This document shows positions 437 to 15,683 of a stretch of DNA of 28,388 bases, one piece after another. Source of the stretch: a virus (Duplodnaviria; Caudoviricetes); IMG/VR virus record IMGVR_UViG_3300042894_003476, positions 1 to 28,388 of that record. One strand, written 5' to 3'. The notes beneath the pieces were generated by a model that was not told the DNA's origin, ran no database searches, and worked only from the letters and a program-made list of their open reading frames with translations. Made by a program: the position numbers and the translations under genes. Within the stretch, counting starts at the first letter, position 1, and each line of letters begins with the position of its first letter.

Positions 437-868
437 TTAGAACGGAACCCCGTCGTCAGCGCTTGCCCCGCTAGCGTCCCCAACGTCGGGGCCGCCGCCG
501 TTTTCAATGGGAGAGAACGTATCGACGCGAGTCTGAACGTTTGACTCCCAAACCTCGTGCTTGACCGAAACCTGACACTTGCGGCCAATCAGCGTCGAAG
601 GGTCAAGCTGAAACTCGCCCTCCTCCGGCACCGGCACACCAAGCGCCTTCAGCGCGAGACCAACGCGCCAAAGAGCCTTCGGGGTCAGGTACAGGAACTC
701 TCTAAGTCCCCTGCCGTTGTATTCGCCGCCCTGAATCTCTAGATCAAGCTCGATCTGCGGCGTTTGTTTCTTTGAACTGCGCCCTTCCTTCGCGTCAGTT
801 ACGACGACGGTGTAGGTGCCGGGACCAACGAGCGTCGGATCCTCAGCTTCGGAAAGGTCAATCTTCAT
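437..868 (-). CDS. DUF669-like phage single-stranded DNA-binding protein
   Basis: Likely start MKIDLSEAEDP at 868 with SD GAGGGAG. PGTY..V motif, LIGRKCQVSVKHE, acidic tail ending DDGVPF. Follows a Sak4-like ATPase. Confidence 0.75.
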   Translation of the reverse strand: MKIDLSEAEDPTLVGPGTYTVVVTDAKEGRSSKKQTPQIELDLEIQGGEYNGRGLREFLYLTPKALWRVGLALKALGVPVPEEGEFQLDPSTLIGRKCQVSVKHEVWESNVQTRVDTFSPIENGGGPDVGDASGASADDGVPF

Positions 869-1664
869 TGTCTCCCTCGCTTTCCTGGTTAATGAACGGA
901 ACGTCCGAAAGATCAGGGGCCAGCGCCGAGCGGAACACCTGAACCCACTCAGCCATCGGCACGAGATCGCGCCACGCCCCCAAAGCCCCCGAACGGTCCT
1001 TTGCTCTGCGGCCCTTATCCGGGACGATCTGACCAACGAAACGCTGATTGCCGTCGTCGTCGTGAACCGCCGTGTAAGCGCAAACGTCAACCTCTCCAAG
1101 AAGAAGCTCCGCTGCCTTACCCTTCGCGTCGATCTCCGGCCTAACGACCAGCTTCCCGTCGTCTTCGGTGATCTGCTCGTGACAGACCCAAACCGTTGAA
1201 CAACGAAGATCGCGGCCCTCCCGAAACAAGTCTTTTAGGTAGCGGGCAACCTGCCCCCAATCGGCAACCTGCGGGTTCGGGCCACCAATCGCGGTCGCGA
1301 GGCTTTCGCGCAGCTTGCCTACCCCGTCAATGACGAGGGCATCGACGTTGCCGACGAGACAGAAGTCCAGCGCCTCTCGCAGACGCGGGCGAGGATCTTC
1401 GTCGTGACCGATACGCGCTTCCAGGATCTCTACGTTGCGTTCGGCAGCGAGCTTGCGAGCGAAGAACAACGAGTTAGGGCCGTCCATATTGACCCAAACA
1501 ATCCGCCCGCCCTCTGGGGCGATCGTCGCCGCAGCACTCGATTTCCCTGTACCGGCAGGCCCGTACAGGCAGATATTGACCCCCTCCGGGGCCAGTACCG
1601 GCGCTGAATCAACCCACGCGGGCCGCTTCGGCTTCGCGTCCTTGATCGTTGGCGGAACGGTCAC
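858..1664 (-). CDS. AAA_24/Sak4-like P-loop ATPase (ssDNA annealing)
   Basis: Walker A GPAGTGKS, Walker B ALVIDG, DWGQV and VCHE motifs, AKDR near the C-terminus. Adjacent to the SSB-like gene. Confidence 0.8.
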   Translation of the reverse strand: MTVPPTIKDAKPKRPAWVDSAPVLAPEGVNICLYGPAGTGKSSAAATIAPEGGRIVWVNMDGPNSLFFARKLAAERNVEILEARIGHDEDPRPRLREALDFCLVGNVDALVIDGVGKLRESLATAIGGPNPQVADWGQVARYLKDLFREGRDLRCSTVWVCHEQITEDDGKLVVRPEIDAKGKAAELLLGEVDVCAYTAVHDDDGNQRFVGQIVPDKGRRAKDRSGALGAWRDLVPMAEWVQVFRSALAPDLSDVPFINQESEGDNED

Positions 1665-1927
1665 GCCGCCACCCGCAATTCGACCTCGTACGGCTCCATC
1701 ACCCGCGACACAAACTCGTCAAAGTCCGCGTCCGCCTCGTCCGGGCGAAGCTCCGTAATTGCCGAGCAATCATCGAGCCTGCGCCTGATCAAATGAACAA
1801 GACGAAGAACCTCCGTCTCGCGGTCACTAACCGGCTCGCTCTCGTCAAGCGCGGTCCGGGTCAGCATTACGCCCAACTCAGAGATCCTTCTTCCGAGTTC
1901 GGCAACATCGGTCTTTGTATCCAGCAT
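1661..1927 (-). CDS. hypothetical protein (88 aa)
   Basis: ATG at 1927 (MLDTKTD) with strong SD GAGAGGAG. Stop overlaps the ATPase GTG (GTGA). Confidence 0.7.
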   Translation of the reverse strand: MLDTKTDVAELGRRISELGVMLTRTALDESEPVSDRETEVLRLVHLIRRRLDDCSAITELRPDEADADFDEFVSRVMEPYEVELRVAA

Positions 1928-1940
1928 TCCCCCGCTCCTC

Positions 1941-2078
1941 TCAGTCCTTGTCCATACGTCCGTAAACGCGCTCCCCGAAGTAATCGAGAAGCGTCTTTCC
2001 GACCAGCACAACGAGGACGACACCCGCAACCCAGCCGAGCATCACCAAGTACGCCGCGCAGGCGTCAACGACGGTCAC
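1941..2078 (-). CDS. small single-TM membrane protein (45 aa)
   Basis: Not in ORF track. GTGA-coupled to the upstream gene. MTVVDACAAYLVMLGWVAGVVLVVLVGKTLLDYFGERVYGRMDKD. Confidence 0.6.
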   Translation of the reverse strand: MTVVDACAAYLVMLGWVAGVVLVVLVGKTLLDYFGERVYGRMDKD

Positions 2079-2314
2079 GCCGCCTCCGCAACGGCGCTCT
2101 CCAAAAGAGCAACCGAAAGCGCGAGTTCAGCCCGCGCTACATCGAAAAGAATCTGCCTGACCGCAAACGCAACCAGGGCGCTTGTTTGATCGTCGCCGTA
2201 GTGATCGAGAACGCGGTCGGCGGTCTCGATCATTTTCTCCGAGCAGTAGCGGTGACGCTCCACGCGGTAGCCCAGGTCCGTAACCGGCTCAACTTCTTTC
2301 AACTCCCCTAGCAC
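2075..2314 (-). CDS. hypothetical protein, first gene of leftward early operon
   Basis: GTG start with AAAGGGGG SD. Divergent from the repressor. Confidence 0.65.
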   Translation of the reverse strand: MLGELKEVEPVTDLGYRVERHRYCSEKMIETADRVLDHYGDDQTSALVAFAVRQILFDVARAELALSVALLESAVAEAA

Positions 2315-2361
2315 TTCCCGACCCCCTTTCGCAGCGGCTTACCCCTGCTTAGTTCGCGGTA

Positions 2362-2386
2362 TGTTCCCGAAGTCCTCGCGGGAACA
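2362..2386. promoter_or_regulatory. palindromic operator candidate TGTTCCCG-N9-CGGGAACA
   Basis: Perfect 8-bp inverted repeat between the divergent early gene and the repressor. CGCGGGAAC recurs at 2377-2385 and 2419-2427. Confidence 0.5.
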
Positions 2387-2490
2387 GCGCGGTATCTAAG
2401 CACAGCGGTCGGCGGAAACGCGGGAACTACTGCGGAACTTCCGCCAAATGCGGGTTTTTCCGTGATCCAGCGCCGCTATCGTCGCGAGCT

Positions 2491-2871
2491 ATGACGGAGG
2501 AGACAACGCTTCCAGGGCGGCTAAGAGACCTCCTGAACACTCGCGCCGTAGGCAAATCCCAGGCTCAGATTTGCCGCGACACCGGCATTGACCGCCAAAC
2601 GCTCAAACGGCTTCTGGAAGACGAGGACTGGAAGCCGCGTTACGTCACGGTTCAGAAGCTCGCTCGATACTTGAACACGAGCGTTGAGTACCTGCTAACC
2701 GGGCAGGGATCCAAAGACGAAAGCCCGACCAGCGACCTAGACGACCTTCGTCAAAGGGTCGATCAGCTAGAGCGTCAGCTAAACGCTCTGCTCAAAGCGG
2801 ACGGAGAAAAACTACGGGCAGCTATCGACGCGGCAGAGCGCTTGTCTTCTCAAAGTGACGAAGGTGCGTAG
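2491..2871 (+). CDS. XRE-family HTH immunity repressor
   Basis: SQAQICRDTGIDRQTLKRL HTH, KLARYLNTSVEYLLTG signature, C-terminal coiled coil. Divergent from early genes. Confidence 0.85.
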   Translation: MTEETTLPGRLRDLLNTRAVGKSQAQICRDTGIDRQTLKRLLEDEDWKPRYVTVQKLARYLNTSVEYLLTGQGSKDESPTSDLDDLRQRVDQLERQLNALLKADGEKLRAAIDAAERLSSQSDEGA

Positions 2872-2980
2872 CGAGTTGTTCGACGCCGCTTCGTAGCGGG
2901 TCGTCAGCCGGAATCTTCGGCAGGGAACGAGCAAGCAACGTAGCGACAGCGGCAAGCAATTCGGCGGACGAAACGGACAC
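2822..2980 (-). CDS. small hypothetical protein (52 aa) convergent on repressor
   Basis: Not in ORF track. SD GGGAGG 6 nt before GTG. MSVSSAELLAAVATLLARSLPKIPADDPLRSGVEQLATHLRHFEKTSALPRR. Confidence 0.5.
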   Translation of the reverse strand: MSVSSAELLAAVATLLARSLPKIPADDPLRSGVEQLATHLRHFEKTSALPRR

Positions 2981-3094
2981 CTAGAACCTCCCAGGGCAAG
3001 CTTTGAATTAGAAGAAGACGCGCAGCCTTGCCTAACCGCGACGTTGATTCAATACGCAGTTTCGCGAAAAAAGCGCTTTATCAAGCCCCAGGAA

Positions 3095-3231
3095 CGACGA
3101 AAGCCCCCCACCCGTCAGCCCGAAGGCTGATCGAGTGAGGGGCTTCGGGTGCGCGTTGCGTACGAGAGAAAACGCCGCGCACAATGACCGGCGAGAGGAG
3201 CAGGGGAATACTCGCTCTTTGCTGCCGGACA
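3095..3231 (-). ncRNA. putative three-hairpin antisense sRNA
   Basis: Back-to-back hairpins at 3185-3231, 3149-3182 and 3100-3146. The first two carry sequence complementary to RBS regions at 1923-1942 and 3322-3331. The third is terminator-like. No promoter identified. Confidence 0.6.
3100..3146 (-). terminator. intrinsic terminator-like hairpin
   Basis: Minus strand AAGCCCC..TCAGCC-TTCG-GGCTGA..GGGGCTT. cUUCGg tetraloop with only a short U tract. Confidence 0.6.
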
Positions 3232-3275
3232 ACTAGCGACCCAAAACGGGTCTAAACTTTTTGTTTAGGGGGGTA

Positions 3276-3304
3276 TTGACAAACGTCCTATAGACCCCTA
3301 TAGT
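3276..3304 (+). promoter_or_regulatory. near-consensus sigma70/SigA promoter
   Basis: TTGACA (3276-3281), 17-bp spacer, TATAGT (3299-3304). Confidence 0.85.
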
Positions 3305-3342
3305 TCTGTTTGTCGGATCAAACGAGAGAAAGGAACCCGACA

Positions 3343-3636
3343 ATGGACAAGTTCACTAAGGATCCCATCGAAGAGATCACAAGCGACCAGGACAGGCAAG
3401 ACACCCTCTACCTGATCGCAGAGAACGCAATCGGACTCGGCGGCTGGAAGGTAGACCCCGCCGACCCGTTCAAGGCTCCCTACACCCCGCGCAACGCCGC
3501 AGGGGCCGCAGGCCGCCTCTACTCGATCAAGTACGGCCAGCCGTTTGAATACCGCGACGGCGAGCTTGACGCGATCGCGACGATGGTTCAGGAAGCTAAG
3601 GACGCTGACCCCAACAACCCCGACGACTACCGGTAA
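3343..3636 (+). CDS. hypothetical protein (acidic, 97 aa)
   Basis: ATG at 3343 (MDKFTK) with SD GAAAGGA, directly downstream of the consensus promoter. Confidence 0.75.
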   Translation: MDKFTKDPIEEITSDQDRQDTLYLIAENAIGLGGWKVDPADPFKAPYTPRNAAGAAGRLYSIKYGQPFEYRDGELDAIATMVQEAKDADPNNPDDYR

Positions 3637-3650
3637 GGGGGCGATTCCTA

Positions 3651-4112
3651 ATGACCACCAAGACTGATACTTACGAATCGCGGTTCCTAGACGCGATCAA
3701 AAACACCATTCACGACGACCCGATAATTACAAAATGGCATTCGGGCGGCGGGGTAATGGTGCTTGACGTCAAGTTTCCCACCGTCTCGCCCGAAGTGTTC
3801 CTTTGCTTCGGCTTTGGTCCGGGCGTTCCCGCGTCTGCCAAAGAGGCAAAAGCAAACTCAACAGTAAGCGAGTATTGCCTACTTTGGCAGCTCGTCGGAG
3901 CTGACGGGTGGCCGCTTGAAGAAGACGGCGAGGGAGAACACCTCATCGGCTACGTCAACGATCTACTTGCTGACGTAGATACCGACGAAGCTTTCTTTGA
4001 AGCCGAAGTCTTCGGTGGCTGGCTGGCAGCAACGATCAACAAACACCTTCACCCGTTTGGAGAACCGGTCGAAACCGCCGTCGCGGAAGCACAAAGGCGA
4101 AACAATGAGTGA
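3651..4112 (+). CDS. hypothetical protein (acidic, 153 aa)
   Basis: SD AAGGGGG. Operon spacing with neighbours. Confidence 0.7.
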   Translation: MTTKTDTYESRFLDAIKNTIHDDPIITKWHSGGGVMVLDVKFPTVSPEVFLCFGFGPGVPASAKEAKANSTVSEYCLLWQLVGADGWPLEEDGEGEHLIGYVNDLLADVDTDEAFFEAEVFGGWLAATINKHLHPFGEPVETAVAEAQRRNNE

Positions 4113-4293
4113 GCCGCTAAAGCAAGCTGTCAAAGCCAACCGCGAGTACCAACGAGCCGCAAAGCGAAGCAACGAGCTACGCGAAAAACGCAACCAAGCA
4201 ATCAAGGCAGCCGTAAAAGCCGGAGTCAGCGAAGCCGAACTCGCCCGCGCACTCAAACTCAGTCCAGGGCGAATCAACCACCTAACCGACTAA
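4105..4293 (+). CDS. small HTH DNA-binding protein
   Basis: ATG at 4105 overlaps the upstream gene end. RNQAIKAAVKAGVSEAELARALKLSPGRINHL is an HTH typical of actinophage small regulators. Confidence 0.75.
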   Translation: MSEPLKQAVKANREYQRAAKRSNELREKRNQAIKAAVKAGVSEAELARALKLSPGRINHLTD

Positions 4294-4294
4294 C

Positions 4295-4465
4295 TTGCGT
4301 CCCCTCGTAAAACCCATAAGGCCAATCGAGCTTCGGTTAGGGCCACAACAAGCCGAAGCGCTAGCCGAAGCCGCGATTGCCGGAAGCGAAGCGCTCACGC
4401 CCGCCCAACAACGCGCCTTTGCGGAAGCTATGCGCAGGCTTCAAGAAGCCCGCTTCCCGCGCTAA
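4295..4465 (+). CDS. small helical hypothetical protein (56 aa)
   Basis: Not in ORF track. TTG 1 nt after the HTH stop. MRPLVKPIRPIELRLGPQQAEALAEAAIAGSEALTPAQQRAFAEAMRRLQEARFPR. Stop overlaps the RusA stop. Confidence 0.45.
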   Translation: MRPLVKPIRPIELRLGPQQAEALAEAAIAGSEALTPAQQRAFAEAMRRLQEARFPR

Positions 4466-15180: not shown

Positions 15181-15683
15181 AAATCAGAAGAAACCTCCTC
15201 GTCAACGTTCGTAATCCACTCCGCGACTTCCAAAGCGTGAGCGTTGATCGTGGTTTCAATCGGGGAGCCGTCCGGGAACTGCGGAAAGCACCCGTAAACA
15301 ACCTCGCGGGCGCTCTCGGCCTCAAAGCCCAGGATCTCCGCAAGTTGCTTATCGAACCGGACCGGGGCATCTTTTCCGGCCTCGTCCTGAAGCGTGCGCT
15401 TCTCACCATCGACCACGACCAGGATCTCCTTACAGGTCGTGATAATCAGGTCAGCCGCAGCCGCCAAATCCGCTTCGGGTGTCGCCTGAGATTCCAGACG
15501 ATCAACCCTTGACGCAAGCTTTCGCATCTCGCCTGCGCGAACCGGGGTGTAACGGGCAACAAGCATTCCCGACCACCCCGGCACTCGCAGATCGAGCGTG
15601 CGTTCGCGCCTAAGTTCGGCGTGCTGTTCACGCAGCCGAACAATGGCGCTATCAACTACCGCCTCGTTCCCCTGGGCTTCCAT
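15168..15683 (-). CDS. tail assembly chaperone (gpG-like)
   Basis: Between tube and TMP. Ends in slippery ...LGEG. Confidence 0.8.
   Translation of the reverse strand: MEAQGNEAVVDSAIVRLREQHAELRRERTLDLRVPGWSGMLVARYTPVRAGEMRKLASRVDRLESQATPEADLAAAADLIITTCKEILVVVDGEKRTLQDEAGKDAPVRFDKQLAEILGFEAESAREVVYGCFPQFPDGSPIETTINAHALEVAEWITNVDEEVSSDLGEG

Follow-up and report, generated by a model that had tools for sequence, protein, structure and literature searches.

An uncultured freshwater phage family carries a four-hairpin element at the end of a late operon; in the window, by which we mean the whole 28,388-nucleotide stretch of viral DNA analysed here, it occupies the minus strand at 3252-3089. The element is real, conserved and undescribed, and there is good comparative support for the prediction that its RNA would pair, in antisense, with the starts of the phage's own genes. 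Judging from the sequences, it is likely an antisense RNA that would switch off genes carrying a matching tag. Several unlinked genes appear to be addressed by this single RNA, whose loops are re-tuned together with the leader tags between relatives. A preliminary description had proposed a minus-strand RNA here, and had suggested folding the region, searching Rfam, scoring pairing at gene starts with shuffled controls and examining covariation in relatives. In the main texts of the largely open-access literature searched, neither the window element nor the cluster K1 hairpin RNA discussed below is described.

Fold, strand and parts of the element

The whole structured element (3089-3252, minus strand), the predicted antisense RNA, is delimited by the span of a covariance model, by folds and by the nearest relative (G002), in which it forms a conserved island between unrelated flanks. 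Its parts, all on the minus strand, are P0 (3252-3238), a short 5′ hairpin whose loop is the gene-start-matching one in the G007/G008 lineage; P1 (3228-3188), with the loop UUCCCC and a 3′ arm antisense to the Shine-Dalgarno sequence (SD) and AUG of gene 1927; P2 (3182-3149), whose 10-base loop (3171-3162) is complementary to the leader of gene 3343 and more weakly to that of SSB; and P3 (3148-3089), a long terminator-like stem with a UUCG loop. The preliminary description had counted three adjacent hairpins; these were confirmed by the fold, and P0 is also part of the element. Its loop for the first of them, UAUUCCC facing the AUG, was misread: the sequence differs, and it is with the upper stem that two of the AUG's three bases pair.

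The UUCG stem was rightly seen as terminator-like, P3 being GC-rich and followed by a U-rich tail after the last gene of the operon; the tail is broken, and P3 was not listed by a simple terminator scan of the window. An intrinsic terminator alone does not account for P0-P2. The Rfam search, run on the window and on eight loci, gave no match at gathering score and only weak chance matches.

As predicted earlier, the region folds on the minus strand (z −4.6). Since the plus strand of the window does so as well (z −5.1), the strand cannot be read from folding by itself. The RNA strand is nevertheless more stable than the opposite strand in 8/8 genomes, with 39 G:U pairs against 10, and it alone has the U-rich tail after P3. 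These asymmetries bear on the possibility that the opposite strand, or the DNA itself, is what works. Sense copies of the leader tags, which the well-folded plus strand of the window would show in loops, might then act like CsrB, as a decoy for a tag-binding protein. Apart from the strand comparison, the differences between arm and target are G:U-compatible for the minus strand, and the window's two loops differ, such that one protein would not bind both alike; we give a sense decoy the lowest probability of any reading weighed here.

Conservation in relatives

A pattern for the Sak4 subfamily returned 11 viral loci, and the element is kept in 10 of them (Sak4 identity 41-100%); in the other, L076 (Sak4 34%), no element was found within the 13 kb examined. 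The relatives fall into the window with G002; the siphoviruses G003, G004 and G006; G005; and the distant G007, G008, G009 and L083. The window phage is also represented by G001, a 41-kb record that is 99.99% identical to the window over the compared part and carries a serine-recombinase domain. A covariance model trained on six copies recovered the four untrained, most distant ones (E 5e-5 to 1e-4). When nine copies were aligned, 89.9% of cells were paired and 9/27 pairs had changed on both sides, compared with 2-5 in slid controls, these pair counts being inflated because the alignment was fitted to the structure.

Contigs of two wastewater runs hold further element variants, one of which retains the P1 core in a re-paired stem. 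In X19, contig depth summed over the element is 93-176, against at most 87 at the listed genes, and related phages collapse there; the X19 and X20 depths are no evidence on expression, because contigs show neither level nor strand and X20 is probably DNA.

The P1-arm pattern matched 40 loci, of which five were already known and the other 35 lack the element by the model; the hairpin-2 pattern matched 24, two of them true; and two further pattern matches, L090 and L096, scored with the model at chance or not at all. The metagenome scan and the first alignment scan were dominated by a generic pattern. Among host-candidate genomes the RNA model matched 0/151 in the class of G011, the gene-1927 profile gave borderline partial matches only, in 4/401 genomes of the order of G011, and a pattern search gave 0/3; no match in cultured phages covered the element. 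Separately, in a phage-satellite-like element with terminase, portal and capsid genes, the packaging operon ends in several hairpins (L089:5812-6056) that have C/U-rich loops and the same terminator style as the window element (model E 3e-6); this match is possibly driven by the terminator.

Pairing with gene starts in the window

The main predicted target of P1 is the SD and start (1923-1943, minus strand) of gene 1927-1661, which encodes 88 aa with three helices and overlaps the Sak4 start. The pairing of all 20 bases of arm 3212-3193 with 1942-1923 had been noted earlier and holds: 18 are Watson-Crick, and both mismatches become G:U for a minus-strand RNA. This is the sole site for the P1 arm within five mismatches in the window. 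The helix grows to 21 contiguous pairs (1943-1923), and its duplex energy is −40.5 kcal/mol, compared with −31.8 when the opposite strand is read. Of 400 dinucleotide shuffles of P1, one reached 21 pairs somewhere in the 41-kb record, and in the shuffled control suggested earlier none of 5000 P1 shuffles reached −40.5 kcal/mol at any of the 68 gene starts.

The P2 loop has a single exact complement outside the element, where 0.05 would be expected, at 3322-3331 (plus strand) in the leader of gene 3343-3636, the first gene of the rightward cassette. The preliminary description had this match overlap the SD; the exact complementarity stands, but the site lies 21 to 12 bases before ATG 3343 and overlaps only the 5′ end of the SD. 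With opening costs included, the gene 1927 and gene 3343 sites rank first and second of the 68 gene starts (−23.4 and −11.4; median −0.7). The SSB leader (871-884, minus strand) is a weaker candidate, ranking third of 68 with a net −9.1 kcal/mol. A weak one, which may be a product of chance, is an exact complement of the P1 loop at 15667-15674 (minus strand); it falls in codons 4-6 of a gene flanked by those for tail tube and tape measure. A point against the P1 and P2 matches is that C/U-rich loops pair by nature with many SD-like sequences.

Loops and leader tags across genomes

Where loops differ in relatives, the gene-start tags differ with them; the covariation of arms and ribosome-binding sites that had been suggested as a check was thus observed, and a table in which loops are swapped between genomes is largely diagonal. 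Counted by Watson-Crick pairing only, with words chosen after the matches had been seen and among related genomes that are not independent, the P2 word of G005 occurs at 7/56 of its own starts and at 0/381 others (p 4e-7), its P1 word at 4/56 and 1/381, the window P2 word at 3/134 and 0/303, and the P0 word of G007 at 3/99 and 0/338. The common P1 arm word was non-specific in the same test (3/282 vs 0/155, p 0.27), and the G007 P1 word was not clearly specific (p 0.079). Gene starts were taken from a crude caller, by which the gene 1927 orthologue was missed in G002 and G004.

In G002, P1 pairs over 23 bases with the gene 1927 orthologue, and the P2 complement occurs at two sites, both of them leaders of rightward genes; the best gene-start helix beat 5000/5000 shuffles in both G001 and G002. 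In G004 P1 (13 pairs) and an altered P2 loop match one and the same leader; this helix beat 4933/5000 shuffles (67 reached it) at gene starts and is ordinary genome-wide, where 369/400 shuffles reach 13 pairs. Single-helix significance fails in G003, G006, G005 and G007, in which 1051, 331, 2636 and 2335 of 5000 shuffles, respectively, did as well. The P2 loop of G003 has no complement in its genome, and P2 is degenerate in G006, G007 and G008.

G005 has both loops changed, and a two-part tag matching both is found at five sites, all directly before start codons, and nowhere in the eight other genomes. Two of the five lie behind sigma-A-like promoters, and one of the tagged genes is a homologue of window gene 3343 (45% identity). 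The gene 1927 orthologue of G005 is untagged and the gene preceding it is tagged; a window-type P1 also pairs with G005 leaders, through the SD core. In G007 and G008 it is the P0 loop that matches, at the first early gene and at the gene 1927 orthologue. The tail tube/tape measure gene, a chaperone by position, has three versions of its leader, which match P1 in G003, G004 and G006, a different P1 in G007 and G008, and P2 in G005. This gene and the gene 3343 homologue of G005 are thus orthologues that stay tagged via different sequences.

The same comparison bears on the suggestion that the element is just a late-operon terminator, its arm matches arising from local inverted duplication and from the general pairing of C/U-rich loops with SDs. 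It sits where a terminator is needed, P3 is one, several distant relatives show just 7-10-base seeds that are singly non-significant, and the related prophage locus L054 has the same terminator style without the loops. Yet P0-P2 are kept with compensatory changes across 41-54% Sak4 identity, the matches reach beyond the SD core and, from lineage to lineage, change over as the loops do, and no shuffle in 5000 reached the G001 or G002 helix; a terminator only is very unlikely. Conservation, strand asymmetry and the co-change of loops and tags together support a predicted trans-acting antisense RNA whose loops would serve as seeds against the phage's own gene starts.

What the pairing would do is suggested by its position. 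P1 covers SD and AUG directly in G001, G002, G004 and G006, the usual geometry of a translation block, which argues against other outcomes of pairing with the tagged leaders, such as cleavage, altered termination or message stabilisation. These would find precedent in the P4 immunity RNA (CI), which is described as acting on transcription termination (PMC3632133), and would suit the P2 site, which is mostly upstream of the SD, and the presence of a late gene among the targets; overall we regard them as highly improbable.

Origin of the RNA and probable role

Like the preliminary description, we found no promoter upstream of the element: a sigma-A −10 box (TANNNT) is missing within 70 bases upstream in 7/8 genomes. 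The element begins 6 bases past the RusA stop in G006, 3 in G007 and 2 in G008; the scripted fold for G004 overlapped this stop, and P0 begins a few bases beyond it. Four genomes (G001, G002, G003 and G005) have a cassette of 424-1882 bases, facing the opposite way, between RusA and the element, and no terminator-like site on the RNA's strand lies between the two there. In the window this rightward cassette (3343-4465, plus strand) has a sigma-70-type promoter (3276-3304, plus strand; 11/12 matches) back to back with the element, and it is missing at the same place in G004, G006, G007 and G008. On the element's strand, the structure/lysis run closes with the gene for a RusA-like resolvase (4878-4462, minus strand). 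The holin and phosphoesterase genes and those up to RusA overlap or abut, and the element is therefore the 3′ end of the lysis run. With no promoter found, and with the element 2-6 bases after the RusA stop in four relatives, it is likely that the late/lysis transcript has the predicted RNA as its 3′ end.

On balance it is probable that the element gives a stable RNA, made late, whose loops pair with tagged gene starts and block ribosome loading. The element would be transcribed as part of the late transcript, and the RNA would be either the 3′ end of that transcript or one of its cleavage products; the RNase E of mycobacteria is described as cutting before C (PMC10641625). The RNA would then accumulate late. 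Its C/U-rich loops would seed pairing, and in the window phage P1 would unzip to complete the 21 pairs. Binding would repress translation of gene 1927 and, by coupling, of Sak4, as well as the first genes of cassettes with sigma-A promoters and SSB; in the siphoviral relatives the chaperone-position tail gene would be repressed. The outcome would be a late brake on early and over-strong messages.

The preliminary description had left the role between an RNA layer of immunity and an early-gene shut-off. Shut-off fits better because a −10 box is lacking in those seven genomes and the element ends the lysis/RusA operon, and the role is likely translational shut-off rather than that of a lysogen immunity RNA. 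The competing proposal keeps the antisense mechanism and gives the RNA its own promoter and production in the lysogen, as a c4-like second layer of immunity or as leak-proofing of lytic genes. Integrases are present in 5/9 records (tyrosine type in G004, G005 and G006; a serine-type Recombinase domain in G001 and G002), the element adjoins a cI-like gene, the targets are early, replication and tail genes, as expected of a lysogen brake, and the P2-matched cassette would already be covered by read-through antisense, which suggests a separate stable RNA. Besides the missing box, the sequence upstream of the element is RusA coding sequence in four genomes, and the G007/G008 lineage has the element without an adjacent cI match; we consider production in the lysogen unlikely. 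The late shut-off that we favour has its own difficulty, in that the conserved late-gene target fits a pure early shut-off badly.

The reach of the RNA had also been overstated. It was said to co-silence both early operons, which is too wide: in the leftward operon gene 1927 comes third rather than first, and the two genes upstream of it have no site; moreover, the adjacent rightward operon is absent from three relatives whose element bears loops. Likewise, of the reported GTGA coupling of gene 1927 to the Sak4/SSB genes, the Sak4 part stands, its start being overlapped by GTGA, whereas SSB overlaps by 11 bases and has a leader to itself (884-871).

Comparison with known antisense RNAs

To our knowledge, trans-acting phage antisense RNAs directed at the phage's own genes are confined to a few proteobacterial phages, with one message controlled. 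The c4 RNA of phages P1 and P7 and the CI RNA of satellite P4 are cut by RNase P from a precursor that carries their target too. Target 2 of the element is on the opposite strand and is therefore unable to share a precursor with it. In c4 and CI the complementarity is borne in loops, and pairing at the ribosome-binding region of the phage's own message is described (PMC12197685). By computation, the window element is similar in being phage-encoded and structured, with loops complementary to the phage's own ribosome-binding regions, and the G005 element shows the recognition of one leader by two loops. Unlike c4, which controls one antirepressor message, it matches several unlinked genes on both strands, and it closes a late operon with a terminator of its own. 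Membership of the c4/CI family (RF01695) was rejected by Rfam, with no match at gathering score in the window and eight loci and, in 1800-3500, no C4 match even at E values up to 10. PMC2864571 lists the c4 motif for Proteobacteria; there are weak indications that the element-bearing phages are actinobacterial.

RsaA- and RsaE-type sRNAs of Staphylococcus display a C-rich motif in loops. That motif pairs with SDs (PMC3961350, PMC4409812). These are chromosomal RNAs with host targets, and no homology is implied; the C-rich anti-SD pairing is alike.

Cluster K SAS repeats

A parallel to the tags is offered by the SAS/ESAS repeats of cluster K mycobacteriophages, which are described as asymmetric gene-start tags that extend beyond 16S pairing and often stand behind a sigma-A-like promoter (PMC3203893, PMC11373665). 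Pope et al. noted one reverse-orientation SAS in four K1 phages and in 2011 left open whether the partner was RNA or protein (PMC3203893); the role of SAS was still called unknown in 2024 (PMC11373665). In Anaya, Angelica, Shaobing, Biglebops and Adephagia we found the reverse-orientation SAS, read on the coding strand, to be the loop of a hairpin, complementary to the SAS core. In Anaya (JF704106, about 59850-59900; L116:35850-35900) 36.8 kb of the coding strand contain no such core other than this 10-base loop, while forward SAS sites number 16. In Adephagia the anti-SAS loop is between genes 92 and 93, at 58685 (L168:1386), an interval in which late transcription appears to start (PMC11373665).

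The anti-SAS hairpin lies in a conserved multi-hairpin intergenic region found in 150 mycobacteriophage records and matching no Rfam family. Among 10 records inspected across the ranking (L119-L127 among the loci), four keep the loop, with stems that vary but pair, two have a near-matching pyrimidine stretch, and four (Yuna, Keshu, SirPhilip and Pixie) are without it; neither Pixie 24000-61147 nor TM4 22000-52797 contains the anti-SAS core. With the loop missing in some cluster K phages, the hairpin cannot explain SAS in all of cluster K.

Both systems have gene-start tags beyond the SD core, and in cluster K the one reverse copy is a hairpin loop. A repeated asymmetric tag of this kind, in part behind sigma-A-like promoters, is found in G005 (five sites, two of them behind promoter-like sites), while the window has a single main site for each tag. 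The differences are that cluster K genomes have 11-19 tags each and those studied here 1-5, that the tag sequences differ (the 13-base SAS consensus has no match within two mismatches in the window), that the RNAs have no sequence homology beyond terminator pieces, and that the late transcript has the hairpin at its 5′ end in cluster K but the element at its 3′ end in the window. We tentatively propose that actinobacterial phages may run a tag-and-antitag translational regulon, in which the phage-specific leader tags of chosen genes would be addressed by one structured RNA of the late transcript with exchangeable loops and the tagged class shut off, the element and the K1 reverse SAS both being instances. 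If true, this reading would give the SAS repeats their missing function. It leads to a direct test, as cluster K phages are cultured and can be edited in M. smegmatis.

Genes around the element

The window phage is tailed, with a sheath, lysis genes, RusA, a cI-like repressor, Sak4 and SSB. The regulatory/early region and the element are common to the tail-sheath phage (G001/G002) and to relatives with other tail modules (G003, G004 and G006). The Sak4-like annealase (1664-858) and SSB (868-437) genes are downstream of target 1 (437-1664, minus strand). The product of gene 1927 belongs to no PHROG or Pfam family, has no fold match at E ≤ 0.001 and has a generic predicted structure; the score of 0.80 for its atlas neighbour 'Derepression' (PF25738) is no higher than chance would give.

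Downstream of P3, a small conserved ORF with its own SD (2980-2822, minus strand) overlaps the 3′ end of the cI-like HTH repressor gene (2491-2871, plus strand). We considered the element as a 5′ leader or riboswitch of this ORF and rejected it, as the G007/G008/G009/L083 lineage has a different gene there with its own promoter-like site. The small ORF is kept opposite the repressor 3′ end (L074:5023, L077:4886 and a copy in L082), and in three relatives it opens with 10-12 consecutive Gs, which keep the frame in two but not in L077, a pattern suggestive of phase variation or of a slip in assembly. No clear SD precedes the ATG of the cI-like gene itself, which may be leaderless.

Within 3254-3303, an inverted repeat whose spacer is 5 bases long lies upstream of the rightward promoter, and it and a motif in the promoter spacer are both kept in G002; a spacer motif similar to that of the window rightward promoter recurs in the cassette promoters of G003, G005 and G006. 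The repeat and the motif are possible operators. Amid the head/neck genes are two genes of glycosyltransferase families (20611-19565 and 25582-24848), suggesting virion glycosylation, and a collagen-like repeat protein of 531 aa (23775-22180) follows the major capsid gene.
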